From: a virus
Taxonomy: Duplodnaviria; Caudoviricetes
DNA length: 64,000 nt
Direction: 5' to 3' (one strand)
IMG/VR virus record: IMGVR_UViG_3300029288_000086
Span: 1 to 64,000 of that record
Below are positions 1-60,916 of the stretch, one piece after another. Every line of letters begins with the position of its first letter. Within the stretch, counting starts at the first letter, position 1. Under the pieces are notes generated by a model. That model saw nothing but the letters and a program-made list of their open reading frames with translations. It ran no database searches and had not been told where the DNA came from. Position numbers and translations under genes: made by a program.

Positions 1-52
1 CCCCATGAAAGATTTGTTTCATGGGCGAGAATTAGATAAAAGGAGAATAAAA

Positions 53-421
53 ATGGAAGAATATAGTGAATTAACGAAAAGCGAATTACAAGATATTGAA
101 GAAGAATTTGATACATTTTGGAAGCCTCTGATCATTAATGAAGATGGGTCAGTTAATTTAGATCATCTTAAAAGAGAACTCACAGACTATTCAACATTCG
201 TCGGAGAAGTTTCTAAGGTTTATGATAATGTGACCCATGGTAATATTAGTAAGCCAAATACTTCTGCCGAAGACGTTATTGCTGTCGCTAATGACGAAAA
301 TGATAAGTTTTATTACAATTTATTTAGAGACGATGTTTTATCTATTTTAGACGAAGAATCTTTGTCGTCAGAAGATAAATTAGAAGAAATTCGTGAATAT
401 TTTAAAGAAGAAAAAGAATAA
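53..421 (+). CDS. hypothetical acidic protein
   Basis: ORF 5..421; AGGAG RBS precedes ATG at 53; the upstream ATG belongs to the repeat site. Confidence 0.75.
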   Translation: MEEYSELTKSELQDIEEEFDTFWKPLIINEDGSVNLDHLKRELTDYSTFVGEVSKVYDNVTHGNISKPNTSAEDVIAVANDENDKFYYNLFRDDVLSILDEESLSSEDKLEEIREYFKEEKE

Positions 422-513
422 TAAAATTAACCACCATATGTACTGTATCGTTAGGCGATATGCCACTATATAGGGATTGTTACCCATGAAATCAATATTT
501 TATTAGGAGAAAT

Positions 514-1814
514 ATGAAAAAAATTAAAAAAATAAAACTTATAGCTGAAACAGACGATGGTGAAGAATGGGTTGTAATGAATAATCAATATAATAATGCC
601 GAAATAAAATTTGAAAGAGGTTTTGAAGAAGTTTCTTTTGATGGATTGCTCATGACGGCAATTCCAATAAATACATATCATATTATTATTAAAGATGCCC
701 AATAAAAGAACTATTTCATGGAGAATGGAATAAAAAATGGTTAGAGATTTAAAAGATTATGACAAAATGATTAATTTTGTAAGACAATTACAACTTGATC
801 AAAAGAAAGAACTTGGCATTGCTGGATGGGCAAGTAACTTTGAAATTTTTATTGATGGCGAAAAAGTTTTGCCGAAAGATGGTATTTTGCATCATTTTGT
901 TATTAATGCAAATATACCATGAAAAGACTTTTTGTGAGAAGGGATAACGCATGGTCACTATTTTAAATATTGATCAATTTACGAAAGAAATCAAGGGATG
1001 GATTCTAGCAACAGATATTGATGATGCTAGAAGACAAGCACAAATTGGATTTTTAAATGATTTGGCAGCAGAATTATATCAAATGACTTACTTGCCAAAA
1101 CTTACTAAATATCAGATGAAGTGCGGATATTTGATGTTACAATGAAAGGACTCTTTCATTAGAAAGGTAAAATATTATGTTTGTTTTGGATACAGGCATT
1201 TTAAATATTTTAGTGCACATCGCTTCTGTGTCTGCTTTATTAGCTTTTATTTTCGGATTAGTTTTTCTTTTAATTTATAGTAAAAATAAATCAATTTTGA
1301 TGCGTTTTTCTGGAATATTATTTATTAGTGCATTTTTTATTTTTTTTAGTAGTTCTACAACTTTAACATTAATGAATAATTTTGCAACAAGATTTGGAAC
1401 TCCCGAAAACGCATCAAATGTTGTTTACTTTAGCATTTACTGTATAATTATTGCATTTTCTTATATAATTATATCACTTATGAGTTTAATATTTGATTGG
1501 GGTTGTTCGAATAAAGTTATTTTTATAATTTTATTGTTATCAAGTTTTATACTTTCTATTTTATTGTTTGTTTTTATGCATGGTTTATGGTGGTGAAAAA
1601 ATTATATTCGTTAGATATTCGGGGAAGAGAAAAAGAATGGTCTTTTGAAATAATAGTAGATCCGAAATATATAGAAGAATGGAGAATTGATGGAATAAAA
1701 ATAAACGAAATTGTGAATAAAATTCCACAATGGTGGGTAGATATGTGGTTTTCTGTGAAGTTTTGGTGTTTTTGGCAAGATTTGTTCAATTTTAATAATC
1801 TATTTGCAAAGTAA
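514..1814 (+). CDS. run of small hypothetical ORFs (514-705, 737-922, 951-1145, membrane protein 1177-1596, 1587-1814)
   Basis: RBS-preceded co-oriented ORFs; the first three end inside repeat sites; 1177-1596 has ~4 hydrophobic segments. Confidence 0.7.
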
Positions 1815-1823
1815 GGAGAAAAT

Positions 1824-3122: not shown

Positions 3123-3551
3123 ATGAATAAAATAAAATTTGTGTTGTTGATGTTAGTTTTGTTGCTAGGATTCTGTCTAACTAGTTGTAACAGCTCTAAA
3201 ATAATAAATATATATGAGGATAATAATGGAGCCATGTTAAACATTAATGAAGACAATACCCTTAAAATAAGTTTGCCAAATGATTGTTCTGAAACTTTGA
3301 CTTGGGTAATTGTTGAGTTTACCTATATCAATAGCTATATGGAAACAATGAGCAAAAAGGATGTTTCGTTTGGAACATCACAATCTGACACTTGTATAAA
3401 TGGCTTAGATGTTATACAATTTAAACTAAAGTCAAAAGGACAATATTGGATTACTTTGGCATATGCTCAACCTTGGGAAAATGCAATTGCTAGTGATATA
3501 AATTTTTATGAAAATCATAAAATGTTTCAGCTAGCAGCAAATGTAAGATAA
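3123..3551 (+). CDS. divergent chagasin/I42-like lipoprotein (paralog of 1824-2270)
   Basis: Lipobox-like LTSC; ISLPN..W and YAQPWE align with the upstream paralog; NPxTGY loop degenerate. Confidence 0.65.
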   Translation: MNKIKFVLLMLVLLLGFCLTSCNSSKIINIYEDNNGAMLNINEDNTLKISLPNDCSETLTWVIVEFTYINSYMETMSKKDVSFGTSQSDTCINGLDVIQFKLKSKGQYWITLAYAQPWENAIASDINFYENHKMFQLAANVR

Positions 3552-3594
3552 TAAAATGACTATTTCATTGTAAAGATTAAAAAAGGATTAAAAT

Positions 3595-5403: not shown

Positions 5404-5433
5404 ATTACCCCATGAAATATGACTTTCATGCGG

Positions 5434-5599: not shown

Positions 5600-6586
5600 T
5601 TGCAAAACAAAGTTGAAAAGAAATTTGCAGTAAAAGCATTTCAGTGGGTAATGGAAAAACACAAAGATCAAGATTATCCTACTCGCAAGTTGGTTGAAGT
5701 GGGGAAAGACTTGTCTTGGCAAGATGCTAAGAAAATGCAAAAAGAAAATATTGGAAGTTGGATTGTATAGGAGAAAAATAAAATGAGAAAACTAACACCA
5801 AAAGCGACAGATTTGATCGAAACAAAATATGATAGTGATTTTTCAGAATTACAATTTGGATTTTGGGACGAAGAAGCCGAAGAATTTATCCCCCTGGATG
5901 GAAGCGCCGAAATGTTTAATATTATTTCTGAAAAAACAGGGTTATCAAGGACAGTTCTAGATTGTCTACAAATGTTTGCTGCCGATATTAATGATAGATT
6001 TAACGCTTTGAACAATGATGTCGCAGAGCTTGCGTCAAAAGTTTTTTAACCCACCATAAAACGAACATTTCATATGGTTAAAATAGAAAAAACATGATAA
6101 TTACTGATATTTCAACACCAAAAACAATAAAACTAAATATGAATGATAAAAATTATAGTGTTACTGCGCTCTATATTTCTGCTCCCACTTTAGAACTCTT
6201 AAACCAAGCAAAAGAGGGATGTATAAAATATTTGCCATTTTCTTATAAACTCCCTTGTGGCAATGTTTTTTCAATGTCTTCGGTAGAAGAATTAAATAAT
6301 CTTCACTTTAAAGACGTTCTCTGCCCTTGTGGAAATAAGAATCATTGGTTTGTTAGATGTGTTATTGATCCGTCATTAGGCAAAAGGACTGAAGATGTGG
6401 CTTAAAAAGAAGTCTAAACCTGAGAAAACTCCAGAGCAAGAGGCATATGAATATGGAATTAAATTATGTATTACAGAATTACAAACTGGAGTTAGTGATA
6501 AAAGAGAATTATTATCGCAATTTGAAAAATTTAAAAAATGGAATTATCCGCCTCGTTGTGGAACTTGTGGTGGAAGATTAGACTAA
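5600..6586 (+). CDS. small hypothetical ORFs (5600-5770 TTG start, 5783-6049, 6094-6405, 6395-6586)
   Basis: Co-oriented short ORFs; 5600-5770 (56 aa) follows AAGGAGG and is not in the supplied track. Confidence 0.65.
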
Positions 6587-15949: not shown

Positions 15950-16981
15950 ATGAATTATATAGTAACACTAGTGGACAGAAATGAAGACTTTATTGAGTTG
16001 CAGTACAAAACAATTAAAAAATTTTTTATCAGCAAAATTCCTTTTGAGTACATTGTTTTTAATAATGCAGGAGATAAGAAAAGAAAAAATAATATAAATA
16101 AAATTTGTTTTAGGCTTGGAATTAGGTGTGTAGACGTTCCATCACAAGAATTTTATTCACCACAAAAAGAAAAACTTAGTCTGAAATTAATGATTAGAAA
16201 AATAAAAAAGCATAAGAATCCATTTATTCTTAGAGATTTATATTCTGATCCAAGTGAAATTGTTTCTGATAGCTTAAATTATATTTGGAATAATTATTTA
16301 AAATTTCTTGATGGAAATTTGTTTTGGATGGATAGTGATATGTTTTTTGTTGATTATTTCGATATCCAAAAAGAGATGAATAATATTGATGTTCTATATT
16401 CTCCGCAATATGTTGGAAAGAATTTAGATACAGAATATATGTGGGCAGGGTTATACTGCTTAAATTTAGACAAAGTTCATAAAAATCTTGATTTTTCATT
16501 AGGAATGGTTGAAGATGCTCAGACTGACACCGGAGGATATACTCATTATTTTCTAAAAGACAAAAATTATAAAAAAGGATATCTTACATGGGATCAATTA
16601 AATTCCATAAAAGAAAATGTGTTAGAGGTTAATTTAGATGGGCGTTCCAAGATTGAATTTACAAATGGGAAAGTTACATTTAGACAAATTATGGGAATAA
16701 ATAAAATTTTTCCTTACGAAAAAAATGATTCTAATTATTTTAAAAATATGTTTATTAGATATAATAAGCACAGAGAAATCGCTGATAAATATAGATTTCC
16801 TCAACCTTATTGCTTTGATTTATTCAGAGTATATAATAGTGAAAACTTTTTTATGTTCCATTTTAGAAGCTCCAACTGGTCAAAAGATTTATATGGTGAT
16901 GGCAATAACGACTATATGAAAGACAAGAAAGAAGCTTTAAAAAGAATGATAGACGATTTGGTGAGAAATGAAAAAATGTAG
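15950..16981 (+). CDS. putative glycosyltransferase-like protein
   Basis: WMDSDMFF (DxD), YMWAG, DTGG; cluster context. Confidence 0.55.
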   Translation: MNYIVTLVDRNEDFIELQYKTIKKFFISKIPFEYIVFNNAGDKKRKNNINKICFRLGIRCVDVPSQEFYSPQKEKLSLKLMIRKIKKHKNPFILRDLYSDPSEIVSDSLNYIWNNYLKFLDGNLFWMDSDMFFVDYFDIQKEMNNIDVLYSPQYVGKNLDTEYMWAGLYCLNLDKVHKNLDFSLGMVEDAQTDTGGYTHYFLKDKNYKKGYLTWDQLNSIKENVLEVNLDGRSKIEFTNGKVTFRQIMGINKIFPYEKNDSNYFKNMFIRYNKHREIADKYRFPQPYCFDLFRVYNSENFFMFHFRSSNWSKDLYGDGNNDYMKDKKEALKRMIDDLVRNEKM

Positions 16982-17825
16982 AACGATTATTTTTTCTCGC
17001 AACCGTCCTTTACAATTAACGTTGTGCCTTCAAACCTTACTGAATCATTGCAAAGATATTCTTGAAATTTCCGATGTTACTGTTTTATATCGAAATGATG
17101 AAGAATATCGGAAGTCTTTTGACAATTTAATGTCGGAATTTCCCCAAATTAGCTTCAAAAAGGAGGAAAACTTCAAAAAAGACCTGCTTTCTTTGCTACT
17201 CCATGAAAGCAACATTTTATGGGGTAAAAATGAGAAATCAACCCCCGCATATGCCGTGTTCTTAACTGACGACACCATATGTACTAACAACTTTTCAGTG
17301 GAACAGGTTATTTCAACACTTGTTGAAAATAAAGACTGTATTGGTTTTAGTTTACGTTTGGGTTTAAATACTAATTATTGTTTTCCATATAATTGTGAAC
17401 AAGCCATTCCAAAGACTGAAAAAGTTTCAAAAAATATTTTGAAATATGATTGGCAAACAGCAGAATATGATTTCAACTATTGTTTAGAGTTGTCTTCTTC
17501 TTGTTACCCCGTTGAAAATGTAATTGATATTTTAAGGGATTGCGAGTATAACTCACCGAATTCGTTGGAGTCAATTATGAGTTCGTGTTGTTTAGAAGAT
17601 AGGCCTAATTTATTAATGTTTGAAAAATCAGTAGCTTTTAGTTATCCGATGAATAAAGTCCAAACAACGCATCCTAATAGAAGTGCAGATTTCAATCCCG
17701 ATACTCTTCGATTGATTTATGAAAAAGGTGGGAGGTTTGAAAGTAAACAATTTGATGGTTATGTGAGTAGTGGAGCGCATGAGATTCCAGAAAGTATAAA
17801 TTTGGTGGACACATATGCAAATTGA
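16968..17825 (+). CDS. putative GT-A glycosyltransferase
   Basis: IIFSRNRPLQL, FLTDD, FSLRLG; cluster context. Confidence 0.6.
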   Translation: MKKCRTIIFSRNRPLQLTLCLQTLLNHCKDILEISDVTVLYRNDEEYRKSFDNLMSEFPQISFKKEENFKKDLLSLLLHESNILWGKNEKSTPAYAVFLTDDTICTNNFSVEQVISTLVENKDCIGFSLRLGLNTNYCFPYNCEQAIPKTEKVSKNILKYDWQTAEYDFNYCLELSSSCYPVENVIDILRDCEYNSPNSLESIMSSCCLEDRPNLLMFEKSVAFSYPMNKVQTTHPNRSADFNPDTLRLIYEKGGRFESKQFDGYVSSGAHEIPESINLVDTYAN

Positions 17826-20680: not shown

Positions 20681-20910
20681 AATGGTAGAATATAATATTC
20701 AATCAGCAATAGATTATCTCAATCTAATCATATCGCAGAGAAAAGAAGTCAATGAAAGCAAGTTTGGATTGAAACTAAATATAGTCGATGATAGTAATAA
20801 TGTCATCGACTATATTACTAATTATTATAATTCACAAGGAATATCTTGCGCAATGAAATATTGTGTATTAGAAAGAGACTATGAAATTATAATTTGGTGG
20901 TAATTAACCC

Positions 20911-38014: not shown

Positions 38015-38015
38015 A

Positions 38016-40454: not shown

Positions 40455-40455
40455 A

Positions 40456-43400: not shown

Positions 43401-43695
43401 TTATATTAAAGACTTAAATCTTACTTACGCTCCACGGCTAGAATGTTATAATTTGGCTAAAGGAACACAAGGCTCAATTAAAATGTATAAAGCAACGTAC
43501 AACAACAAGCCTTTTTCTGTGGGCGCAATCATAAAATTAAAACAAGGATGGTATGAAGAAAAACCAAACACAAAACCAAACATTAACAATGTTTTTGTTC
43601 CAGATGGAACTGGAACACATTATATTATAAGCAAGTTTGAGTTAGTTACACCAGAAGAATTAGACAAAATATTAGAGGAAAAAACAAATGCCTGA
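40456..43695 (+). CDS. dnaE: DNA polymerase III alpha subunit (family C)
   Basis: PHP NYHSH, GRGSA, LFPERF, PDIDF, KNDLL, IYQE, YSFNSAHAYS. Confidence 0.95.
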   Translation: MNNYINYHSHTSMSNISTPDSVISNRDRAIRASELKQTVLSGVEHGWMGKVIETIELSKEFNIKPLLGSEVYAVKNRFEKDKTNAHLILLAKNENGRKSINRLLSESNVSGFYYKARCDFELLFNLPKNDVWVTTACIAGFPWKYEDSENIIEQLLDHFENNLFLEVQNHHTDSQKILNKRIVELSNRYHIPLIAGMDSHMIYPNQAQERDDYLLSRGIEYPDEQNWFLDFPSYEEALQRFKDQGVLNDVKIEEALDNTNIFNDVKEYNSIVFNPDIIKLPTLYPNHKQEDKNKILETLVWSKWEQEKNNIFSSQHAYYEGEIRKELDTIFETNMADYFLLDYEVIKKGKEMGGQITLTGRGSAVSFYISKLLDFTTVDRIAASVKLFPERFISAERLLETKSLPDIDFNLGNPEVFVKAQEIIIGEGHSYPMIAFGTVKASGAWKLFSRISNIDFDTANDVSMQLQKYDMDLKHAESEEEKESLDVLDYIEPKYHNIFNESKKYLGLVNSLTPHPCATLLFNNGDIREEFGLIKIKTGNVEHICACCDGLFAENYKLLKNDLLKVNVVKLIYGVYERINLCPHTIPELLKVCENDKSVWDVYANGWTKGINQFEQTGTRGRATKYKPHNISELSAFVAAVRPGFKSNYDAFESRQAFEYGVKSLDELIQTKEFPYSFMIYQENAMQVMAYAGIPIAKTYEIIKNIAKKRVEKVKKYKDQFITGMKKKLVDDENLNAEEAKKVALMTWQIIDDSSRYSFNSAHAYSVAGDSLYGAYLKSHYPLEFYEVFLNILEEDGDKNRLSEVKIEAQEAYGIKFPSLKFGQDNRKIVANAATKEINQSMQILKGFGNTVGEKFYNLSLDFLGNDFLELLVYAEESGYMSAKWDKLIKINYFDKFGSNGKLYEIYKEFTDGENKYQKTYVEKTKIKRLETLKEIWNNLPNKKIPFNQQLKNEFEILGTIQSIYPELNKKYKEEKFPTKYYYIKDLNLTYAPRLECYNLAKGTQGSIKMYKATYNNKPFSVGAIIKLKQGWYEEKPNTKPNINNVFVPDGTGTHYIISKFELVTPEELDKILEEKTNA

Positions 43696-43888
43696 ATACA
43701 ACTTTAAATGTACATTATGCAATACAAAATTTTCTATCTTTAGATCAATGAAAGAATCATGGGAAGTATATTGTCCAAAATGCAGAAGTGAACACCTAGA
43801 AAGAATCTTCTTCCCTACTCCTGTCGTATTTAATGGGAAAGGATTTTATAATACAGATTCACGAGCACCCTTGACACCAGAAGAATAG
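43688..43888 (+). CDS. FmdB-family zinc-ribbon protein
   Basis: MPEYNFKCTLC..CPKC..FNGKGFYNTD. Confidence 0.8.
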   Translation: MPEYNFKCTLCNTKFSIFRSMKESWEVYCPKCRSEHLERIFFPTPVVFNGKGFYNTDSRAPLTPEE

Positions 43889-43899
43889 TGTGGTAAACT
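43871..43899 (+). promoter_or_regulatory. sigma70-type promoter
   Basis: TTGACA-17-TAAACT with TGn. Similar promoters at 47005, 50901 (TTGATA, before tRNA-Trp) and 52693. Confidence 0.7.
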
Positions 43900-43930
43900 T
43901 ATTGTATAAATTAAACGAACAAGGAGAATT

Positions 43931-44374
43931 ATGAATATATATTTAGCACATCCAATTAGTGGGCAGACAAGGGAAGAAATATTTAAATATTATGACCAAG
44001 CAATCTTGGACTTAAAAGATAATTTTAAAGTTTTTCACCCAATGTTGGGCAAAGATTATTTAAGAAATGATCCTAAAGAAAGAGCAAAACCAGCAGGACA
44101 AAATTCACTCAATCCTGTTGCAACAAATCATGCCATTAAAGAACGTGATAAATGGATGGTCACTCAATCTGATGTAGTATTTTTAGATTTTACTGGAGCA
44201 GAAAGAATTTCTATCGGTTGTTGTATGGAACTTGCTTGGGCAGACCTTTTAGGAAAACATACAATTGTTGTAATTGATGAATTGCATAATCATGCATTTG
44301 TATTAGATTGCGCAGACATTGTTTTTAACAATTATAATGAAGCACTTGAATATTTAAAATTATTTAAGTTTTAA
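43931..44374 (+). CDS. nucleoside 2-deoxyribosyltransferase-like
   Basis: IYLAHPI, RDKWMV..SD, SIGCCMELAWA. Confidence 0.8.
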   Translation: MNIYLAHPISGQTREEIFKYYDQAILDLKDNFKVFHPMLGKDYLRNDPKERAKPAGQNSLNPVATNHAIKERDKWMVTQSDVVFLDFTGAERISIGCCMELAWADLLGKHTIVVIDELHNHAFVLDCADIVFNNYNEALEYLKLFKF

Positions 44375-44423
44375 CCCCATGAAATGGTATTTTCATGTGG
44401 TACTAAAAATAAAAAGGAAAAAA

Positions 44424-47400
44424 ATGGGAATACGAGATCAGAATAAAAGATTTTATTTGGAATGTGACTGCGGATGTGGAATTTTAGAATTTGAGAGATG
44501 GTATTGGGAAGAAGGCAACGAAGATAATTCCCTATCATTTACTTATTATGTTAGATCCTTTGACGCTTCATGGTTTACTTCTTTTAGACGAAGAATCAAA
44601 CAAGCGTGGAAACTACTAATTGGCGACGATTCATTTGTGTGGAACGTCTGCGTAGAAGAAAAAGATTTAACAAAATTTAAAGAATTTGTAAATTCTATAT
44701 GATCACCATAAAATGAAGTTTTCATGGGATAGAGAAAAAGGATAATTATGTTTACACAAAAAATGTATAAAGCATTGCGTAGAGACAATCAAGGGAAAGA
44801 AAATATTATTACTGATCTATTAAATGAAATTGATAGACTAAATAAAGAATTACATCCGGTATGTAATTGTGAAAGATGCACAGGGATAAATGATTATTGT
44901 TTAGAAAGCGAAGATGACAACCCTAGTTTTTCAATGCATTAAATATAACCCCATGAAATCAAACTTTCATTGGATATAGAAAGGAATAATAATGGCATCA
45001 ATATCTTGTGGAGCAGAAACAGATGATATTTTAGATTCAATCTTTGATATATGTATGGACTATACAAAAACGCCTCAAGAAAGAAAAAAGAAAATTTATG
45101 ATGATGTTGTTGGGAAATTAGTATCTTCTTATAATTCAGCAGATCAAATAAGCGAATTTCTTGACAAAGAAGGTGGAGAAGAATGGGAAAGAGCACAAGA
45201 TGAAATGCGTGACAGAGGTAGTTATGGATGGGCGCGTATGGTAATACAAATGATTAAAAATATGCGAGAAGATAATTAACCCTATGAAATAAATGTTTTA
45301 TTGAATTAAATATAAAAAAGGAAAATTTATGAGCTTAACAAATTCTGGAAAATGCGAAAAATGTGGAAAAGATTTTTTTTGGAGCATCGGTAATCCTAGT
45401 TGGTTTTTTGGGAACTGGGAATTAGATTTAAAAATTATGTTTGGAGAATTATTAACAAACGAAGAAAAAGAAATAATAAAAGCAGAAAAGGCAATGAAAG
45501 CATGGTGGTTTTCGGTAAGAAACTTATGCCAAAAGTGTGCTCCTCCTCCGCCTAAAAAAGATGGAATTAAAATATCAATTGGTATGACGTAATAATTTTT
45601 CTATATACAAAGGATAAAAATGAACGCAATAATTACAGTAAAATTTAAATTATCAGGTGTTTGCGACCCTGAAGATTTAAAAAATACGGGAATGACTTTT
45701 GAGGAAATGGTTCGATACCTAATTTTACAAGAAGGTATTTTTGGACTAGTGGGAGATGACGGAGCAATTATAAATATAGAAGTTTCACAATAATATAAAG
45801 GACAATATATGATAACCAACGAAATATATAGAGTTTGTAAAACAAAAGAAGATTTTGCAGAAATAAAAGATTTTGATGATTTTGAATCTGCATATACTCA
45901 TTACAGAAAAGATATAGATCAATATATTGCAGGTAAGATAGTTCATAAATATGATTTTGAAGAAGTATTCTTTGATTTTGATAAAAGAAAATATCCACCA
46001 AGAGACCAAATTATAGATATGATAGAGAATACATAAGGAGACGATATGGAAAAAGAAGAATATAAGACTTATGTTTGTCAACTCGCAGATCTTCTAGAAG
46101 ATTCACTAGAAGATGCAGATTTTTGGTATAGCGAATGCCCCTTATACGCAGAGCATTCGGAACTATCAATCGCGCATCAGCAAATAAAAACAAAAGCTAC
46201 AGATATTTTACGGCAACTCGACAAGAAAATTCAGGAGGAATTAGCGAATGACGCAAGATGAATTTCAAGAAGTAATCAACGATAATAAGCAAGAAGAGGA
46301 TACATTTTCAATAGGATTATTGCATTTTCCAGATTGGGATAAAATAAAAAGATTAACTGGAAAAAGTAAGGAGGAGTGGCATAATGAAATTTATAGATAA
46401 GCTATTAGAAAGTACTAGGCATGGTAAAATTGATGATGCGTGGAATTTTTTTCCACCAGATAGATACAAATATCGAAGGATGTTTGATCCTCTTACAAAT
46501 CTAAATTTTTCCTTATCTGATAAAGTAATAGAATTTTTTGAAGAAAATAATAAAATAAAAAATAGAGAGAAAAAAGACAAGGGATTGATCATTTTTCCTA
46601 ATGGAGCATCCTTAGAAGTTGATAGAGAAAAACTATTAGAATTAAGTGCTGAATGTAAAAGAGCAATTATCAGGTTTATGGAGCATCTATCATCAGATTA
46701 CGTTAGTGGGAAAATGGAAGCGGATTTGCAAGCAAAACAAGATGCAAAAGATAAGCAAGAATCTAAATCAGAGGAGGCTTCGACGGATGAGGAACAAGAA
46801 GATTAGTTTGAAATATAAGGCGATGAAGCATCTATTTGAAGATATGAATTATCTTGTTAGTTTAGGTTTTGCAGAATATGTTGCTGATCCAAAAACTGGA
46901 GAAGATGGTTGGCGAATCAATCCAAAAGGCATGGAACTTCTTGAGAATTATCAAGAAAGCACTCATCCCACTCCATGAAATTGAAGTTTCATGGTAATTG
47001 GGTATTGACAAGATAAAGAAAATATGATATAAATATTACAAGATAGGATAAAAATGGATGTACAAATTAAAAAAGATAATGTTTTTATTGGGATACCAAT
47101 GAAAAATAGAAGATTTGTTGTAGATAAAGAAACTCTGAATACAATATTATCAGACAACGGATTCCAAGAAACATTTTACCTTAATATAAAAAATTTAGGA
47201 AATGAATTATTTTCTATTTATTTTCAAGATAAAAAAGATGTCCCTTTTGATAGGAATAATATTTATTTTCCTGGACACGATAATATAAATATCGAAAGAA
47301 AACTAACATGAAATGGAGATTTCATAATGATAAATACTAGTCAATTTGAAGAAATAAATAAGATTACCGACCCCATAGATGCAGCTAAAAGATATCTCCG

Positions 47401-48272
47401 TGCTGTTTCTTTGTTTAGAGACAATTGTGAAACCGACATAAATGAAATAATTTTTGACGATTTAGCATATCGCTTTACAGAAAAATGGGCTGAGATTGTT
47501 TCTAAATTACCCAATGAAAGCGCAATTTCATTGGAGGATAATGGATAAAAAATATTGCACAAATTGTATACTAAATTGTAGTAATAAGGCAAATGTTATT
47601 GCTTGTAGTGGGCCAGTTTATAGAGAAAAAGAAGAAATATTAAATGGTTGGAGATTCAGGCATAATAAGAAATTTTATTTTTATTGTCCATCACAAAATG
47701 AATTGATTAAATTAGATTCTATGGAGTAAATTATGGTAAACAATTATTACAAATGGACAGACGAACATATCCAAGAATTAAAAACGAAAGCAAAAAATCT
47801 TGATGGATATATTCTCTACTCTTTATACTGTAACGCATTAGATGAATTATTGTCACTAGCAAAAGAAACTAGTGTCATGTATGATAATCGAAGAGAATTT
47901 GAAGAAAAATATCGCAATTTATATAACATATTAGAAAAAGTTCAAGACGAAATAAATGATAACTTTCAACAATAAAACTATTATTTCATGAGGTAAAATA
48001 TGACAAAATGTTCTGCAATTATTCAGTTTGGTGATGATTATGGCGATAATCATTGCACATTTCATTGTCAGTTAGATGAAGGTCATTCAGACGAACATTT
48101 AGAAATTGGTAATATGTATGGGGTTCCTTATCGCCTAGAATGGGTTGGTGATATGACGGAAAAGGAAATTGATGAATCTGGATTGAGTTTGATTAAAGAA
48201 GAAGATAGAGATGAATTGCCTACTGTTATGGAAGACGCAATGATGAAGGCAATAAGAAATAAAAGCACATAA
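44424..48272 (+). CDS. array of small hypothetical ORFs
   Basis: e.g. 44424-44702, 44748-44942, 44992-45279, 45329-45592, 45809-46036, 46046-46261, 46384-46806, 47054-47311, 47327-47548, 47733-47975, 48000-48272. Confidence 0.7.
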
Positions 48273-48295
48273 AACGACCATTTCATGAGGATAAT

Positions 48296-49381: not shown

Positions 49382-49851
49382 TAAGAATAATCGAAGATGA
49401 TATTTTCAATTCACCCATAAACACCATTATTTGCCATCAAGTAAATTGCCAAGGTGTCATGGGAAGCGGTATTGCTAAGGAAATTAAATCTCGTTATCCG
49501 TCCGTATATGAACAATATAAATCTTTTTGTGGCAGTTTAGATAGAAAGTACCTTTTAGGAATGGGACATTTGTCCATAGACAATCGCACCAATAGAGTTA
49601 TTGGAAATTTATTTGGGCAAGATGGTTATGGGAAAGGGTTGCAAACAGATTATTTTGCTTTACAATCTGCTCTCGGAGATGTAAAGAAATTTGCAAAAGA
49701 TCATCACCTCCTTGTCGCTATACCGTTCGGTATAGGGCGTGGTTTTGGAGGTGGAGATTGGAATATTGTGTATAAAATAATAGAAACCGTTTTTGAAGAT
49801 TATGACAATGTTGTTATTTATAAGCTACCAGATGAAACACGCATTTCATGA
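49378..49851 (+). CDS. macrodomain (ADP-ribose binding/hydrolase) protein
   Basis: HQVNCQGVMGSGIA, NLFGQ, IPFGIG.G.GGGDW. Confidence 0.85.
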   Translation: MIRIIEDDIFNSPINTIICHQVNCQGVMGSGIAKEIKSRYPSVYEQYKSFCGSLDRKYLLGMGHLSIDNRTNRVIGNLFGQDGYGKGLQTDYFALQSALGDVKKFAKDHHLLVAIPFGIGRGFGGGDWNIVYKIIETVFEDYDNVVIYKLPDETRIS

Positions 49852-50938
49852 GGTAAAAATATGAAAAAAGAAGAGTTCATAAAGAAAGTTAAACAAATTT
49901 CTAACCCTAGGATTATAGAAAGTATGGATGAATATTTAATTCTTCTAAATACTTATTGGGTCGTTGAAAGTGCAGATTTTGGTAATTTTGATCATTTCTG
50001 TACGCCACCAGTAAAACTTTCTTATAAACCTCATGAGGGTGGATCCGCTGTTCAAAAGAAAATTGACAATTTTTATAAACGAGAATCCGCACTTAGAGAA
50101 AAATATTTTAGATGGTTTGATGAAGCAATTAATAAGGAGAATATATGAATATAGATTTAGAGAATGTTAAGATTTATGAAGCTTTTAGACGATGCATAAA
50201 TAGTACACCACTAGAAGAAATTCATTGGTTTGAGAATGGTGAGGAAGTTGTTATTGATAAAGAAGTTATAAGTGAGTTTGAAGATATTGGATTAAACAAT
50301 ATTGATTTTGCTACAATGAAGTATTGGAAAAGGGTATAATGTGAAAACTAAATTTAAATTAGCAGGAAGTTCAGCCAACGTGGTTTTACGTGATGGAAAA
50401 ATATTTTATGATAGAAAGTATGCAGATGATTATTTAGTTTGCGAACAAGCCGAAACATCAAATGTTTTCTCTTTTCAAGAACATTTTTTGCCCATGATAA
50501 AAAAGACCACACAATCCTCTTCATTTGAAGACGGCAGATATCATGTTTATTTTACGGGAACGGTTGTTTGGAACGGTGGGCATAATAGTGAAAGCGGAAT
50601 CTGGGAGGGTTGGGATAAACCAGAATTAGATTATGTGCATTGGAAAAAACTAAATGACACCATGAAAGAATAGTTTCATGGGCCTAAAAGGAGAAGAATG
50701 AAAGAAATTGAAGAAATTCACGAATTAGATAACCTAAAAATTATTACAATGAGATATGTCACTAGTGAATATGGTAGCCATTATGAAATAGAATTAGAAG
50801 GTGGAATTTTTGCTAATTTCCATGGCGGAAGTGTTGGCTATGAAAACGCAACTCCATGGTATTACATGGAAAAAAGAAATAAGTTAGAATTATTAGACAC
50901 TTGATAAATAAACACATCTATGATAATATTATAGGTAT

Positions 50939-51014
50939 GGGACGTTAGCGCAATTGGTAGAGCACTCGCCTCCAAAGCGAATGGTTAGGGGTTCAAGTCC
51001 TCTACGTCCCGCCA
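50939..51014 (+). tRNA. tRNA-Trp(CCA)
   Basis: GGGACGT/ACGTCCC acceptor, anticodon loop CTCCAAA, GGTTCAAGTCC, encoded 3' CCA. Confidence 0.92.
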
Positions 51015-53231: not shown

Positions 53232-53254
53232 ATACACAATGAAAGGAATATTTC

Positions 53255-54874
53255 ATGGGACTTAAAAAATTATCACAAGACTTAATTAATAATATGTATT
53301 TTGATTATGATGACGGACAAGAAATTATAGAAGAAACGGCATTAGCTGCGTTATTGCAATCAGAAATAGCATTTTGCTATCCGCAACCAAATAAGTCAAA
53401 AGAAGATGAATCTGTTATAGCATTGGGCGTAAATTGCAATGATATATTTTGGTGGGGTTGTGCAGATTTGGAGCTTTTTAATTATTCTGAAATTCAATCT
53501 TTGTATGAATCATCTTTTGATAAAGAGGGAAATGAAAAACCATGGGGATCAATTATTTGGTCTTGTTTGCATAGAAAAATGAGACCGCAACACCCAGTTG
53601 AAGATATGATGAAAAAGCAAGGATTTTGGACTAATGATTTAGAAGCACTACCTGTTCGTGTGAATACTGGATAGTCTCCATGAAAGAGTCATTTCATGGG
53701 ACAATGACCACTGTATATAGTGGTAGTATGACAGATATGGTAGAAGATATGAAGGCAATGAAAGGATAATATGAATTTTTTACAAAAAATATTAAAAAGA
53801 GAAGAATATAGAGCAATAAGAGAATATGATGAAAAAGAAAGAGTTGCTGCTCACAATCAACTAATGTCAGAATTATCTTTATTAGAAAATCCAGAATTTA
53901 GATTCGACAATATAAAAATATTGTTAGATTATGAAAATTCGCCAGAATATAAACTAATTGAACTAAAAAGAAAATATTTAAGATTGGTGAAAAGAATTTG
54001 CATTTTTAATAATATTCCTATAGAAAATAAAGATACTGTTGGAAATATTAATTCAAAATTATCAAAAATTTACTCAAAATTAAATGTTCCGGGAAATACA
54101 ACATTAAAAAAATATGTTGAATTGTTATCAGAAATAAATAATAGCATATAAGGGAACAAATTATGATAATAAAATATTTTTGTGATTGTGGAAAAGAATT
54201 AAATTTTGATCAATTTGAATATGACGACTACCCTAAGACTATTTTTTGTGGATGTGGGTCTAAATACGATAAAGGATTTTGTGAAGAATGTGGGCATTTT
54301 CATGTTGACCAAATGTATGTTGCTCCAAAAGAAACTATGCAACAGCAAAAAGATGGTCAGCATCATAATGTGGTTATATAGGATTCACAGGGTTTTAAAA
54401 TGGTTGTTTATTATTCTAATCGTAATTATTATTTTGGAAATGATAAATATATTTTAAGGAGACGATATGAATAAGATTTATAGCGTTGATAAGAATACTA
54501 GCGTTGGAGAATTTTGCTCAGGAATATTTATTGATCTGTTTTCAGCAATACAACACGCAAAACATATTTCTAAAACTGAAGGAAATATAACATATGTTTA
54601 TCAACATATTCTCAAAAACAAAGAATATGTCCCTGATGGAATGATTTTTGATTCAAGTACTTTTGAATCAGAACCAGAATAGGAGAAAAATATGTATGTA
54701 AAAAAATTTGATAAAATGGGAATAGATGAATTTACAACATTATCATTTCCTTCAGAAAAAGAACTGCTGAATTTTCTAGAAAATAATCCCAATTATGCGT
54801 TACACTGGGATAATGAATATTTATGGGAATTAAATAAAATTTATGTTAATGGTTGGGAAGATCCACGCCCATAG
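53255..54874 (+). CDS. small hypothetical ORFs (53255-53674, 53771-54151, 54163-54381, 54467-54682, 54692-54874)
   Basis: Co-oriented short ORFs; 54163-54381 is Cys-rich. Confidence 0.65.
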
Positions 54875-55319: not shown

Positions 55320-55361
55320 TACCATGAAATAAGGATTTTATTGGTCTGGAAGGAGAAATAA

Positions 55362-56135
55362 TTGAAACTTAAAGATATAGCAAAAGAATCGTATTATCAT
55401 GAAAAAGGTGGAATGCTTTTAAAAGGTGATTGTTTAGATTGGATGCCGAAATTACCAGACAAGTCTATTGACATGATATTATGTGATTTACCTTACGGTA
55501 CAACAAAATGTCGTTGGGATACAATTATCCCACTAGATAAATTATGGTTGCAATATAATAGAATTATAAAAGATAATGGATCTATATGTTTGTTTGCTCA
55601 ACTTCCTTTCGATAAAGTTCTTGGATGTAGCAATTTGGAAATGTTACGATATGAATGGGTATGGGAAAAGGAACAAGGAACAGGGAATTTGAATGCCAAT
55701 AAAATGCCTTTAAAAAAGACTGAAAATATTCTTGTTTTCTATAAAAAGTTACCTTTATATAATCCTCAAAAAACCATTGGAAGACCATATGAAATTGAAA
55801 GAGAATATAATGATAACGAAATATTTGGGAAAACAGGAACAAGAGATGGATATATTACTAAGAATGATGGTTTTAGATATCCAACAAATATTTTAAAGTT
55901 TAATCGAGAACTGAAGAACAGATTACATCCAACGCAAAAACCAGTATTATTACTTGAGTATTTAATCAAAACTTATACTAATGAAAATGAAATTGTCTTA
56001 GATAATACGGCAGGATCGTGTGGTGTGGCAATTGCCTCTAAAAACATTAATCGTAAATGGATTTGTATTGAGAAAGATCAAAAGTATTGTGATGTTTCTA
56101 TAGACAGAATTAAGAATTGGACAATAACCCCATGA
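55362..56135 (+). CDS. N6-adenine/N4-cytosine DNA methyltransferase (beta class)
   Basis: DLPYG, HPTQKP, VLDNTAGS; paralog of 33753-34508; bracketed by sites 55324 and 56132. Confidence 0.9.
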   Translation: MKLKDIAKESYYHEKGGMLLKGDCLDWMPKLPDKSIDMILCDLPYGTTKCRWDTIIPLDKLWLQYNRIIKDNGSICLFAQLPFDKVLGCSNLEMLRYEWVWEKEQGTGNLNANKMPLKKTENILVFYKKLPLYNPQKTIGRPYEIEREYNDNEIFGKTGTRDGYITKNDGFRYPTNILKFNRELKNRLHPTQKPVLLLEYLIKTYTNENEIVLDNTAGSCGVAIASKNINRKWICIEKDQKYCDVSIDRIKNWTITP

Positions 56136-56166: not shown

Positions 56167-57721
56167 ATGACCACTACAAAAGAAAACGCCGAAACAGCAT
56201 CAGAATCATTAAAAAATCGAGCTTCAAAATCGCTTATCCAGCTCATCTATCAGGCATCTCAAGGGCAACAATATGTAAATGTGCAATCAGCAAGAAATAT
56301 TATCGAAGATATTGTCGCAGCATCACTTTTAGAAAATCAATTGTTAATAAACACAGCTATAAAAACACCAAAGGAGAAAAATTAAAATGACAGACGAAGG
56401 CAAAAAATTGCAGCAAATTCAAATTCAAAAGAGTTATAATTTTTTAAAAGAAGAACGAGTAGTTACAAGCAAAGATACAGCATTTAAATGGATATATGAA
56501 ATCGCCCAAGACTACGATGGAGCAGAAGATATCGGAGGTTTACGAGCAGTAATTGATGAACTCGCCGCCTATGCCTTGCTTGGGAAAGAATGTTCAGAAT
56601 AATATGAGTAAATCTCAAATATATGACCCAAATACCTTGACAAGAATGAGCTTTCGTGATAGACTATATCAATGGCTATCAAAGAAATTACCTTGGAGAT
56701 TGGTCTGGTTTTGTGTAATTAGAGCATTGGGTATATACAATTCTTATCGAAGATTATACCCAAATACTTTCAATATGCCTACATCTGGACTTACTGTAAT
56801 AGAGTTAATTCATAGGTTGGATGAAAAAAGATTCGATGAATGGGAGCAATAATTATTGAAAAAAATATGCTTTTATTGTGGAGAAGAAATTAATGAAAAA
56901 GATTTGTATTGGTCAGAACCAATAGAAGGTGCTTATCCCTCAAGATATGGTAACTTATTTTTTCATAAAGAAAAATGTTACAGAAAAATAAACAATATAC
57001 ATCGGTATATAAAGGACAATACTGAAAAGATATTAGAAACACTTACAAATAGCAATCCTCAAATACCAAAAAGACTAGATTCAAAAATACCTATAAACAA
57101 AAAAGAAGTAAAGAAAAATGAGAAAATTAAAACAGAAAAAACAAAAAGCAAGCATTATTCTAAAAGAAAGAGGTAGGAAACATGATTTCAAATTCTGAAA
57201 ATGAAATTTTAGATGCTATTCATTTTCCGCCAAAGAAAATTAATGTTGGAAAATATAGCGTAGAAATTAAAAATAAATTGCAAGAGGGAAATAAAGTAAA
57301 AATTGATATTGAAAAATATCGTCCACAAAAGGATTCTGGATCAATTACTGATACTTTCTGGAAATTTTTAGAAGACAATAAAGACACTGTTTTTACAATT
57401 TTCGCTCGTAATAAATATGGGATTATGTGGGGAATAGAAGAAGATGCGAGGTGGTCTTTATATAGCGATTTTTTAATTAAAGTTGAATAATTACAATAAA
57501 ACAATAATTTCATGGAGAATAATATGACAGTTGCATCTTATGTAATTTTAGGAATAGTCGGATGGATAATGTTTGGATCAATTGTTTTGGGTGGTATTGA
57601 CAAAAATCTAGAAATTACCAATTGGAAATTGCATGCTGTTTGGTGGTTGAGATTATTGGTAAATTTATTCTGGCCTATTATTGCTGTTATATATTTGAGT
57701 AAAAAGAATCACACGAAATGA
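56167..57721 (+). CDS. small hypothetical ORFs
   Basis: 56167-56385, 56387-56602, 56604-56852, 56856-57176, 57182-57490, 57512-57721. Confidence 0.65.
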
Positions 57722-57749: not shown

Positions 57750-58301
57750 ATGATAAATAAATATATTATTGATAGTGATATTACACATATCGTCTTAAGA
57801 GAAACAGACACCGAATATATGGAAACATTGATTGATACTGAAGATTTACATAAATTAATAAATTTTAAATATAGTTGGTTTCCGGCATATTTGCAAAGCC
57901 CAAAGGCATACTACGCTCATTGTACAGAATATTTATCATCAAATCATGGCGTTCCAATTAATCGAACAATAGGGTTGCAGTGTTTTGTTTTAGACTTACA
58001 AGGGAACGATAATTGCCACGTAGATCATATAAACCATAATGCGCTAGACAACAGAAAAGAAAATTTAAGAATTATTAAAGCAAAAAACAATTTGACAAAT
58101 AGAAAATCAAGAAATTGTAACAATACTTCTGGGCATAGAAATGTATGCAAAATAAACAACAAATGGGTCGTACAATTACAAGTCAACGGCAAAAATACAA
58201 GATTAAAATCTTTTCCATTGGATAAATTAGATGAGGCTAGTGCATACGCAGAAGAGATGAGGCAATTACATTATGGAGATTTTGCAGGATTTGATTTATG
58301 A
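57750..58301 (+). CDS. HNH endonuclease with AP2-like DNA-binding domain
   Basis: VDHINHNALDNRKENLR, NTSGHRNV, W..Q..G. Confidence 0.85.
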   Translation: MINKYIIDSDITHIVLRETDTEYMETLIDTEDLHKLINFKYSWFPAYLQSPKAYYAHCTEYLSSNHGVPINRTIGLQCFVLDLQGNDNCHVDHINHNALDNRKENLRIIKAKNNLTNRKSRNCNNTSGHRNVCKINNKWVVQLQVNGKNTRLKSFPLDKLDEASAYAEEMRQLHYGDFAGFDL

Positions 58302-59017
58302 CTTATCAAATATATAATCAAAACAATACAAAAGTTTGTAGTCTACCAAAAGTAGATTTAATATATGCGGACATGATCTACGAGAATGAAAACCTTTCAT
58401 GGATTTATGATTTTTTCGATTTACTTAAACCCAATGGAATTTTTATCGTCCAAACGGATTTTCATACAAATTATTTAGTGAGAGATGTTCTTGAGAATAT
58501 CCGTCAAGCAACATTTGTAAATCATTTGGTTCAAAAAAACGAATGGGGCAACCATCCTAAGAATAGATTTCATCAATGCTATGATGACATTATAATTTTC
58601 TGTAATGGCAAAAATTGGAAATTTTATCCAGAAAGAATTCAAGTAGATAAAGTTACAAAAAACAAAGGACTGAATCCTTCAGGTAGGCAAACAAAACAAG
58701 CAACAGCATGGATAGACGATGTTTGTTTAACTACAACTTCAAAAGAACGAGTCAAGAAAGAAGATGGGCATTTGATTCGATGGCAAAAACCCTTAAAATT
58801 ATTTGACAGAATTATTGCCCCATTTACTGACGAAGGAGATGTAATATTAGATCCTTTTATGGGCAGTGGAAGTCTTGGAGAATGGTGTATAAAAAATAAT
58901 AGGAATTATGTCGGAATTGAATTAGATAAAAAGATTTTTGGACTAGCAAAACAAAGATTGGAAAAACTTACCCCACGAAATATCACTTTCATTGAAAAAG
59001 GACAAAAATATGTTTAA
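58298..59017 (+). CDS. DNA methyltransferase (beta class) with atypical catalytic motif
   Basis: VDLIYADMIY in place of DPPY; WQKP; ILDPFMGSGS; GIELD. Confidence 0.75.
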   Translation: MTYQIYNQNNTKVCSLPKVDLIYADMIYENENLSWIYDFFDLLKPNGIFIVQTDFHTNYLVRDVLENIRQATFVNHLVQKNEWGNHPKNRFHQCYDDIIIFCNGKNWKFYPERIQVDKVTKNKGLNPSGRQTKQATAWIDDVCLTTTSKERVKKEDGHLIRWQKPLKLFDRIIAPFTDEGDVILDPFMGSGSLGEWCIKNNRNYVGIELDKKIFGLAKQRLEKLTPRNITFIEKGQKYV

Positions 59018-59677
59018 TGATATGCCAAAGGGTTTTCCTAAAAATATAGGCATTATAAAGATACCTATAGGGCATCCTTATTCATATTCTAAAAATAAAA
59101 GAAAGGAGAATACAATGGAAATTTTAAGTAAAGATAAAATAAATAAATTAATAGATATGTATAGCATTGAAGATACCGTCAATACTTTTCTATCAAAAAC
59201 TATCAATAAATTTCCACTTACAGAAGATGAATTAAAATTAGCATTTCAGATTATTGATCGCTGTTTTGTAAAATATTATTTAGATTAGAATGGAAAATAA
59301 AATGATTAAATATTTTCACGAATTAACATTTGCTGAACATTTTGATATTTATAATAGGGCATTATCATGGAACAGAATAAGAAAAAAATATCCCGAGCCT
59401 CCCTGGTGCTCCAATGAAAACGCAGTTCAGGGATTGATGGGATGTGACAATTTGATGATACATGCAATTAAATCTGAACTAGATTGTCAAGAATGTAGAT
59501 TTTATAAGAGAGGAAAAACATGAACGATATTAGAATGTTAATAGAGCAACAATTAAAAGATTTTATTGATTTTCTAGCGGAAAGAAAATACTTTTTATTA
59601 TCTGAAAAAGAACATTCTAGAATCACTTTTAAAATTTTACAAGAATTAATTAATGAATATATGGAGAAAATTTAATT

Positions 59678-60505
59678 GTGCAAGCATATTTAAACATTGT
59701 AAAAGATATTTTAGATAATGGCGTATTAAAAGAAAATCGTACAGGTGTAAACGCTCTTGCTATTAGTGGAGCTATGTTTTCACATGATATGCGAGAAGGC
59801 TTTCCATTGCTTACCACAAAGAAAATGTCTTTAAAAAACATTGCAGTAGAATTAGAATTTTTTATCAAAGGCTTGAGCAGTAAAAAATGGCTACAAGATA
59901 GATGGAATTTTATATGGAATAGCTGGTGTAATCCACAAAAAGTTCCATATGGTACAGACGAAGAAACCAAGCGAAGAATGCGGGAAGAAGATGATTTGGG
60001 AGCAATTTATGGAAAGCAATGGCGTAATTTCGGCGGAGTCGACCAGCTAAAAAATGTTGTAAATACCTTGAAGGCAAATCCAAATGATCGCAGGATGATC
60101 GTAAGTGCTTGGAATCCACCAGAGCTAAACCAAATGGCACTTCCTCCTTGTCACTTAATGTTTCAAGTAATTGTAATTAATAATACAATTAATCTAAACT
60201 GGTATCAGCGCAGTGTAGACACAATGTTGGGATTGCCCTATAATATCGCATCTTACGGATTGTTGCTAGAACTTTTGGCAAAAGAATCCAATCTAATTCC
60301 TGCTAAATTATGTGGAATGCTAGGTGATGTGCATATTTATGAAAATCATATTGAAAATACAAAAATTCAATTATGGCGTGAACCAATGGAATTGCCATCT
60401 ATAGAAATAACTAATTTTACAAATATTTTTGATTGGACATACAAAGACTTTTCTTTAGAAAATTATAAATCACATCCTGCAATAAAATTTGATATAGCGG
60501 TATAA
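59678..60505 (+). CDS. thyA: thymidylate synthase
   Basis: NRTG, FPLLTTKK, YGKQWR, SAWNP, ALPPCH, QRSVD..LGLPYN, HIYENH. Confidence 0.97.
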   Translation: MQAYLNIVKDILDNGVLKENRTGVNALAISGAMFSHDMREGFPLLTTKKMSLKNIAVELEFFIKGLSSKKWLQDRWNFIWNSWCNPQKVPYGTDEETKRRMREEDDLGAIYGKQWRNFGGVDQLKNVVNTLKANPNDRRMIVSAWNPPELNQMALPPCHLMFQVIVINNTINLNWYQRSVDTMLGLPYNIASYGLLLELLAKESNLIPAKLCGMLGDVHIYENHIENTKIQLWREPMELPSIEITNFTNIFDWTYKDFSLENYKSHPAIKFDIAV

Positions 60506-60916
60506 GGAGGTAAAATGACATCAAAAGAGGAAAAAGATTTCACAGAGAAAGTAATTAGATTGTCATACAAATGTGCAAACGAATTGAACATCAAGAGAGA
60601 AGATATTGTTAGTCAAATTTTTATAAAATGGCTTATCGACAAAGTAGATAATTTTGAAAAGGAATCTCATAAAAATGAAGACAAAAATATTGATATTGCT
60701 GTATAATCCTAAAACCAAAGAATACATTGAATCACTATCCAATGAAAGTGACATTTCATGGTGTGAGGGTTGGGTTAAGGCAATGGATTTTAGTGACATG
60801 TTTTTTATTAAGAGATGGATATTGAGATTAAGGTTAGAGTATAAGTTTAGGGATTTAGGGCTAAGTTTGAGATGGAAAAAAGTGTTAGTATTTGATGGGG
60901 TTAGGGGTGTGGTGTA

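Follow-up and report, generated by a model that had tools for sequence, protein, structure and literature searches.

The DNA analysed here (the window) is the first 64 kb of IMGVR_UViG_3300029288_000086, a single virus contig of 143,090 bp (G000). The element in question is a dispersed inverted repeat, ATGAAA-N6-TTTCAT, whose copies each carry a six-base centre of their own. The window has a GC content of 32%, and nearly all of its genes lie on the plus strand and have strong Shine-Dalgarno sites. The encoded proteins include a PolIII-alpha-type DNA polymerase, a primase-helicase, a Sak4-like annealing protein, a CCA-adding enzyme, and radical-SAM and sugar-modifying enzymes. Outside the window the contig encodes distant homologues of the SPbeta terminase, of its tail proteins, of the integrase-family protein YomM and of the RNA polymerase YonO, and these genes mark it as a large siphophage that is only remotely related to SPbeta. 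No close relative was found among GenBank phages, against which a megablast of 10 kb gave nothing.

When at most one arm mismatch is allowed, the window contains 49 copies of the repeat (23 of them perfect), compared with 2.33 expected from shuffled sequences (maximum 7). The whole contig contains 91, all but a few of which lie at 0-62 kb and 115-143 kb, where small plus-strand genes form two blocks. The original prediction, made from the letters of the window, had proposed a spacer of fixed length, and this is borne out: with a gap of 6 bp there are 49 copies in the window and 91 genome-wide, whereas each other gap length between 0 and 12 yields 0-5 and 0-8, respectively. The clean sites it had listed are real as well, although it counted 51 of them; the extra two are probably degenerate copies, such as the one at 25510. 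The full arm consensus is a dyad-symmetric 10-bp inverted repeat (CCCC-ATGAAA and TTTCAT-GGGG), and the complete site measures 26 bp. The outer four arm bases are lineage-specific, and the core arms are more widely spread.

The sites are intergenic and lie on the coding strand. The stop codon of the upstream gene (TGA or TAA) very often coincides with site positions 2-4, and the start codon of the next gene lies 0-35 nt past the right arm; a few copies have a centre that also serves as the ribosome-binding site. Most sites have no adjoining promoter, and promoter-like sequence follows only a few. Sigma-70-like promoters (TTGACA, about 17 nt, and a TATAAT-like hexamer) are found just downstream of some sites, at window positions 20900-20935, 31440-31470 and 47000-47035.

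An exact-pattern scan of IMG/VR returned further motif-dense phage records, namely G001 (160 kb, 94 sites), G002 (56 kb), G003 (180 kb, complete with terminal repeats, 66 sites) and G005 (38.5 kb); G004 is a fragment near-identical to part of G001. A metagenome scan with an alignment of the Xer-like recombinase encoded within the array gave 40 loci, which are numbered with an L. Sixteen loci with 36-38% GC, a recombinase 43-45% identical and a centre series of their own are referred to as family B. The features of the array are listed below by window position. Sites are unstranded and are named by their centres, and a partner is the same centre in G001 or G005, in an L-numbered locus, or in family B.

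5-22: site GATTTG, same centre and order at G001:103186
486-503: site TCAATA, same at G001:103421
702-719: site GAACTA, same at G001:104297; upstream stop codon is site positions 2-4
1142-1159: site GGACTC, same at G001:104702; flanking genes unrelated on both sides
3551-3568: site TGACTA, no partner found
5412-5429: site TATGAC, 5/6 match at G001:106086
6056-6073: site CGAACA, 5/6 match at G001:106701
17203-17220: site GCAACA, inside the conserved open reading frame (ORF) 16968-17825; same in G001, G005 and family B
22383-22400: site GTGTTC, same at G005:7564
22789-22806: site CGACTG, same at G001:123635 and G005:8025
23218-23235: site TTTTAC, no partner found
23538-23555: site CGCTTG, no partner found
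23929-23946: site TGCATA, same in L104; source-run contig join here
24422-24439: site TGAGGA, same in L104; centre also the ribosome-binding site, and ATG of the next gene overlaps the right arm
24935-24952: site CTGATA, same in L104
25510-25527: degenerate site (two arm mismatches) CCGGTA, same centre at G001:124636, in L104 and in L105
25776-25793: site GAACCA, same at G001:124983
26867-27775, plus strand: gene for the Xer-like tyrosine recombinase (302 amino acids), candidate enzyme for the sites
28603-28620: site GTTCAA, same in L077
28890-28907: site GGGAAA, same in L081
29510-29527: site TAAAGG, no partner found
29716-29733: site TAGAGA, same at G001:127229 and in L075
30596-30613: site TAGTGG, same in L075; source-run contig join here
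31413-31430: site TGCCCG, same in G001, G005, L084 and L085
31679-31696: site CGCAAG, same at G005:14413 and in L084
32532-32549: site TCGGCA, same at G005:15165
33342-33359: site GCGTCA, same at G001:130560; opens a run of five shared sites that are separated by unrelated genes
33720-33737: site CTGCCA, same at G001:130850
34505-34522: site CAGATA, same at G001:131135
35079-35096: site CGAAAA, same at G001:131439
35321-35338: site CAAGAG, same at G001:131657; left border of the swapped replication module
37029-37046: site GCATTA, 4/6 match at G001:132810
39825-39842: motif match GAGTGG with right arm TATCAT, inside the primase-helicase gene; probably a chance copy
44379-44396: site TGGTAT, no partner found
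44708-44725: site TGAAGT, same at G001:147920; upstream unrelated, downstream gene 95% identical
44953-44970: site TCAAAC, heads an extra cassette not in G001
45284-45301: site TAAATG, same at G001:148163
46975-46992: site TTGAAG, same at G001:149094, where the sigma-70-like promoter after the site is kept along with it
47308-47325: site TGGAGA, same at G001:149535; centre also the ribosome-binding site
47514-47531: site GCGCAA, same at G001:149962 and G005:37905
47972-47989: site CTATTA, same at G001:150519
48269-48286: site CGACCA, same at G001:150720
49832-49849: site CACGCA, no partner found
50662-50679: site GAATAG, no partner found
53239-53256: site GGAATA; ATG of the next gene overlaps the right arm
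53680-53697: site GAGTCA, no partner found
55324-55341: site TAAGGA, same centre in L082 and L105
56132-56149: site TGCAAA, same at G001:151907
57496-57513: site CAATAA, 5/6 match at G001:153736
58975-58992: site TATCAC, no partner found
60742-60759: site GTGACA, same at G001:156495

The centres are kept between related phages. Blastn aligns about 30% of the length of G000 with G001, at 77% identity, and the DNA polymerases of the two are only 27% identical. Forty-six of the 91 G000 centres are identical in G001, all in the same orientation and none reversed, where about 2 would be expected by chance, and the order of the shared centres is strictly monotonic. The stretches between these anchors contain only about seven near-matches, of which four agree at 5/6 and three at 4/6 positions. 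Per-base identity of the centres at orthologous sites is about 98.5%, an estimate that leans on matching by the centre itself. The variable arm positions 3 and 16 differ in 18-25% of matched pairs and are thus less conserved than the centre.

The genes around the shared centres are replaced. Among 42 matched pairs from the early region, 34 are flanked on both sides by unrelated ORFs and 8 have a related ORF on one side; there is no pair in which both sides are related (blastp, E 1e-3). Ungapped identity around matched sites falls close to that of an unmatched-pair control within about 10 nt on the left and over a leader of about 50 nt on the right. The alignments include five consecutive shared sites (33342-35321) separated by four unrelated genes, and sharp switches from more than 90% identity to none at sites 138496 (contig position) and 44708. 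The replication module has been swapped whole between the shared centres CAAGAG and TGAAGT (window 35321-44725) and measures 9.4 kb in G000 and 16.3 kb in G001. Seven G000 centres recur in order in G005, even though its recombinase is only 49% identical. G003 shares centres with G000 at chance level only; the sets of centres are therefore lineage-specific, on core arms of wider spread.

Family B provides an independent lineage. The same order of centres recurs across ten contigs, with different slot contents, and the slot between GACTGA and TCTTGA holds at least six different cassettes of 218-1200 bp; six arrangements follow CCTATC. One contig (L098) is a mosaic of two others. The shared parts of these contigs are 95-99% identical, and homology breaks at sites to within a few nt. 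In total, 63 of 157 internal ends of high-identity blocks fall no more than 25 bp from a site centre, compared with 6.5 expected (maximum 13 in 200 randomisations). GCAACA is the only centre common to both phage lineages; the ORF that contains it in the window (16968-17825) has no Pfam match, and in family B the centre lies about 0.9 kb upstream of the recombinase gene.

The centres also obey rules of composition, some of which had been pointed out in the original prediction. All 49 in the window are distinct and none starts with A, as stated there: T opens 20 of them, G 16 and C 13, and given a genomic A frequency of 0.36 the chance of no A-start in 49 centres is about 3e-10. A mirror rule applies to the last base, which is T in 2 of 49 and A in 29. 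When 293 sites from five phages are pooled, 4% of centres start with A and 5.5% end with T; among isolated copies of the same palindrome in cellular genomes, A-starting centres are common. The remark that many centres look richer in GC than their surroundings was likewise borne out: the window centres have 44% GC, the 20 nt of leader after each site 23.5%, and the window as a whole about 31%. No palindrome occurs among 251 centres, and the end positions of the centre are complementary less often than expected by chance (82 Watson-Crick pairs versus 104, p=0.003; 293 non-redundant sites, five phages). Genome-wide 90 of 91 centres are distinct, the one repeat being the 39825 copy inside the helicase gene. 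The caution that uniqueness alone is weak evidence proved sound, and taken by itself it does not reach significance: G000 has 1 identical pair compared with 3.2 expected; for three genomes pooled the figures are 1 and 6.9.

Judged by these comparisons, the centres are most likely position-specific addresses for exchanging genes. This had been one of the readings offered in the original prediction, and the part concerning position-specific swaps with relatives agrees with the identical, collinear centres (46 of 91) and replaced flanks, whereas a few junctions, described below, break strict addressing. As the mechanism, we somewhat favour site-specific exchange between like centres by dif/lox-type core sites. 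The layout has the features of such sites, with inverted arms of about 10 bp around a fixed 6-bp centre that is asymmetric and directional, and would thus constitute a core site for a dimeric tyrosine recombinase. The arms would be read by the protein, since they are the same everywhere. The centre would work as the address, since it is unlike at each genome position yet kept between related phages, and productive exchange would take place only between sites of the same centre. Co-infecting relatives could in this way swap the segment between two shared addresses, even the replication module, with gene order kept, and unlike centres would avoid deletions between sites. Unique, collinear centres with freely replaced cargo are as expected if exchange works only between like centres. 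The sites behave as two independently read half-sites on duplex DNA whose centre is kept asymmetric, and not as a stem-loop.

A rough check disfavours recombination on the arms alone with donors of unlike centre. Under that model no more than a quarter of the sites with both flanks replaced should retain their centre, whereas 34 such sites have done so, out of at most about 77 candidates. From the whole of these observations we infer a requirement for centre identity, a crossover within the centre, and the Xer-like recombinase as the agent.

There are two integrase-family genes on the contig, the Xer-like gene at 26867-27775, inside the site array, and the YomM-like gene among the tail genes; no serine recombinase was found in the contig. 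The YomM-like gene (contig 78243-79238, minus strand) is shared with SPbeta, which lacks the sites. The Xer-like protein matches PF00589 with 75.2 bits (cut-off 27.1), and its best solved relatives are archaeal XerA (5hxy), a XerC-like protein (4a8e) and XerD (1a0p). Its catalytic R-K-H-R-H-Y set aligns with those of 4a8e and 5hxy, and 13 homologues, with identities down to 45%, all keep R147, K169, H240, R243, H266 and Y275. A possible N-terminal SAM-like core-binding domain matches PF13495 with 22.2 bits, below the cut-off of 27; PF13495 or PF02899 appears in the precomputed Pfam annotation of several homologues. The recombinase is conserved in G001 (76%) and G005 (49%). It is the most likely candidate for the enzyme that acts on the sites. 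By analogy with dif, lox and related sites, the 10-6-10 bp layout with identical arms would fit a single Xer-type homodimer.

The sites largely accompany this recombinase. They are present at 27 of 31 metagenome loci with a homologue at least 43% identical, the four without being contigs of 1.2-4 kb, and absent in 8 of 9 loci with a homologue at most 30% identical. L084, whose recombinase is 51% identical, also has TGCCCG followed by CGCAAG.

No close homologue of the recombinase was found in 185,579 species genomes, and there is thus no sign that it serves lysogeny. A pattern scan of the same genomes found no arrays of the motif in cellular genomes; only isolated hairpins, many of them terminator-like, and a repeat of Methanosarcina were returned. 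The latter is a longer dispersed palindromic repeat with the core CCCATGAAA-N6-TTTCATGGG, present in the Methanosarcina genomes L121, L131, L140, L141, L152, L157, L164, L177, L185, L186 and L195. It has a different context, does not form arrays and is probably unrelated to the phage sites. Mimicry of host dif sites and prophage copies were considered and rejected, given the lack of arrays and of a close recombinase homologue in these genomes, and the scans gave no clue to the host and no evidence of lysogeny.

The only public run that contains this stretch is probably the source sample. Among its contigs, two of three contig joins in 20 kb coincide with sites, at 23929 and 30596. The joints listed for the run, which have sides of 20-27 letters at 85% likeness, are not trustworthy. 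The run also contains a second, low-depth contig of the recombinase gene (window 27389-27759) with 46 differences (depth 4.9 versus 13.8). A diverged relative thus co-occurs in the same landfill sample. These observations give no more than a hint of sites shared between co-occurring relatives.

Several observations weigh against the proposed exchange between like centres. Sixty percent of the block ends in family B do not lie at sites. At the junction of the orthologous genes O and P (contig 124967 in G000, 64756 in G001), the two genes are joined by different centres, and the break lies about 24 nt into the leader, outside the site. Several conserved islands run past the right arm through the ribosome-binding site or promoter. 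The gene after site 5 has an 84% identical counterpart in another slot in G005, and addressing is to this extent not strict. G003 has 66 sites and no detectable Xer-like orthologue (best tblastn E 0.13), only other integrase-family genes, and the co-occurrence of recombinase and sites is confounded by shared ancestry. As the arms are identical at all sites, sequence alone does not place the crossover inside the centre. An attempt to locate the crossover from arm variants was abandoned, since position 16 is no better kept than the control and position 19 is, a contradictory outcome from an underpowered set of 40 pairs.

The idea, also contained in the original prediction, that unlike centres block deletions within the genome has little statistical support, and none in G000. 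Near-identical pairs of centres are depleted in G003 (5 versus 17 expected, P<0.0005) and G001 (27 versus 40, P=0.015), but in G000 they are not (42 versus 44), which is a further point on the opposing side. Over-dispersion of the centres was rejected as proof of selection for uniqueness for the same reason, being significant in G003 and G001 and not in G000. With all of this in view, a natural genome-wide cassette exchange, with about 100 core sites, identical arms, mutually incompatible 6-bp centres and one phage Xer-like recombinase that serves them all, is proposed tentatively, and we would put it somewhat below an even chance.

The strongest alternative is short-patch homologous recombination. 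Here the 26-50-bp island of identity formed by arms, centre and leader would be the sole foothold between diverged phages, and recombination would be due, for example, to the Sak4-like annealing protein encoded at 37103-38014 or to the host RecA. The arms would serve another protein, for example a regulator of early genes, and the centre would still be an address, merely by lengthening position-specific identity, with no site-specific cutting. The conserved islands that often reach into the leader, the ribosome-binding site or the promoter suit this explanation, as do the breakpoints within leaders, the presence of a Sak4-like gene and the occurrence of sites in G003 without an Xer-like orthologue. 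Linkage to the centre also decays gradually on both sides, with no stop at the border of the centre. There is moreover a precedent in the PeSL cassettes of T4-type phages, where modular shuffling can be driven in this way by repeated regulatory motifs (PMC2839356). However, palindromic arms and a constant gap of 6 bp are not required for homologous recombination, and identical arms at about 90 places would promote ectopic events. Short patches also leave unexplained why the centres (about 98.5% per base) are better kept than the wobble positions 3 and 16, and why the base rule at the ends of the centre is dyad-symmetric. General recombination on short patches of identity certainly contributes, because there are breaks away from sites, islands past the arms, family-B ends elsewhere, a moved gene and a genome with sites and without the orthologue. 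It could be the whole mechanism, although we regard this as unlikely.

A role of the palindrome in RNA was an early interpretation, in which the transcribed repeat, looped out at its centre, would serve between cistrons in termination, processing or stabilisation. The position of the sites would suit it, as they lie between genes on the coding strand, often over the stop codon of the preceding gene and 0-35 nt ahead of the following start, and the same palindrome occurs inside classical terminator hairpins in cellular genomes. Yet the sites are not followed by a T-run, and their stems are not extended. Flank pairs show no covariation, pair 3/16 is an A-C mismatch in 85 of 293 sites (five phages), and predicted RNA folds are weak (-0.5 to -6.7 kcal/mol), with four of six no better than shuffles. 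Rfam finds two tRNAs in the window and nothing at the sites, and a loop has no reason to stay letter-for-letter the same while both neighbouring genes change. The hairpin or regulator site was dropped as a first reading because of the missing covariation, the weak folds and the conserved centres, and it deserves very little credence.

An array of operators is equally improbable. A dimeric repressor or activator would bind the arms, and the 6 bp would be a mere spacer, in the manner of MrpR on SPBRE. Dyad symmetry and fixed spacing suit a dimeric DNA-binding protein, and in SPbeta a protein with a tyrosine-recombinase fold represses through a repeated element (PMC10516654). The original prediction had allowed for such an unconstrained linker if the spacers drifted freely at syntenic sites; at those sites they are about 98.5% identical per base, which refutes it. 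In addition, SPBRE differs in sequence, its roughly 10 copies lie in promoter regions, the SPbeta genome has the motif only at chance level, the recombinase described here keeps all of its catalytic residues, and most sites are not beside a promoter. A homology-independent recombinase of the Tn916 type, proposed at the outset as a source of randomised spacers with a new, effectively random centre at each event, would explain why all centres differ within a genome but is contradicted by the comparison with relatives, since identical and collinear centres in phages with different cassettes are the opposite of randomisation.

Some further features of the contig were noted. The two tRNA genes are:

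36432-36506: tRNA gene
50939-51011: tRNA gene

An HNH/His-Me endonuclease gene at 17815-18753 is without a homologue in G001 and G005, in which the two genes beside it adjoin, and is probably a homing endonuclease insertion made without the use of a palindrome site. Genes for two paralogous N6/N4 DNA methyltransferases occupy different slots (33753-34508 and 55362-56135), and their homologues in G001 and G005, 43-56% identical, occupy slots of their own. The homologue of YonO, the single-chain RNA polymerase of SPbeta, is encoded at contig 106654-109200 on the minus strand, in a late block nearly devoid of sites, and is conserved in G001, G002 and G003. A second motif, CTTAACAG, occurs at contig 117491-126830, 4-7 nt past many sites in the 115-143 kb block and ahead of the ribosome-binding site.

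The contig itself begins 4 nt before the site with centre GATTTG (window 1-22) and ends 6 nt past a site with centre TTAGTA (143067-143090). The same two addresses are separated in G001 by 26 kb that contains 24 sites. It is therefore likely that the G000 contig is broken at sites and that a block is missing from it, in agreement with a CheckV completeness of 78%.

Phage genomes are mosaics, and the neat borders between their genes are an old question. In the phages described here, a defined 26-bp site marks borders of the mosaic, and its centre provides a label that is conserved and specific to the position. Addresses of this kind would explain the fast turnover of small accessory genes under a fixed gene order, and many of the genes that turn over may act against host defences.

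Heterospecific lox and FRT sites have identical arms and unlike spacers, recombine only with a partner of the same spacer, and in pairs swap a segment cleanly. If the recombinase reads the centres, the phage sites would be a natural counterpart of this engineered cassette exchange, with about a hundred orthogonal sites and a possible toolbox. The laboratory design uses 2-4 variants with 8-bp spacers, whereas the phage system would be natural, with about 100 variants and 6-bp centres.

In the PeSL elements of T4-type phages a sigma-70 promoter is combined with a terminator hairpin, the copies are alike, and non-allelic copies recombine and form mini-circles. The two systems resemble each other in having a repeated intergenic motif among small non-essential genes, with borders of indels and replacements at the motif (PMC2839356; PMC4122927). 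Unlike PeSL, most copies in the phage described here lack a promoter; no hairpin signal is seen, and the centre of each copy is distinct and conserved.

SPBRE, the operator of MrpR (YopR) in the Bacillus phage SPbeta, likewise occurs repeatedly in a large siphophage that has a YonO-type RNA polymerase, and the protein that recognises it has the fold of a tyrosine recombinase (PMC10516654). MrpR, however, is a catalytically dead repressor, whereas the recombinase found here keeps its catalytic residues, and the roughly 10 SPBRE copies lie in promoter regions. SPBRE was rejected as an equivalent of the sites: the element upstream of aimR, yosX, yonX and other genes differs, and the SPbeta genome has 3 chance-level copies of the motif. 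The attC sites of integrons, which have been reported in phages too (PMC9892861), similarly bound arrays of single-gene cassettes with tyrosine-recombinase sites. They are, however, imperfect palindromes of about 60-140 bp that act as a folded single strand, depend on the IntI integrase and one attI entry point, and are not position-specific. The 26-bp phage site shows no sign of folding and lacks the defining features of attC.

Of the known systems, the dif modules of Acinetobacter plasmids come closest. The pdif sites of Rep_3 plasmids there have an 11-6-11-bp layout, are used by XerC/XerD and differ in their spacers, and the inversions, deletions, cointegrates and module replacements in which they take part involve identical or near-identical spacers (PMC13141974). 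The inner arm ends of the pdif sites tabulated are A/T-rich, and 6 of 7 spacers start with C or G and end with A (PMC13141974, Table 1), a pattern that resembles the rule for the ends of the phage centres. Both systems combine arms of about 11 bp with a 6-bp spacer that differs between sites, and in both many sites per replicon bound small accessory modules. However, pdif sites have distinct XerC and XerD arms and depend on the host XerCD, whereas the phage sites have one inverted arm sequence, which suggests one homodimeric protein. C and D modules alternate in orientation on the plasmids, whereas the phage centres all point one way. There are about 90-100 sites per phage genome compared with a handful of pdif sites, their order is collinear across relatives, most cassettes hold a single small gene, and the replicon is a large phage with an Xer-like gene of its own. 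If the proposed exchange between like centres is correct, the logic of plasmid dif modules would extend to viruses.

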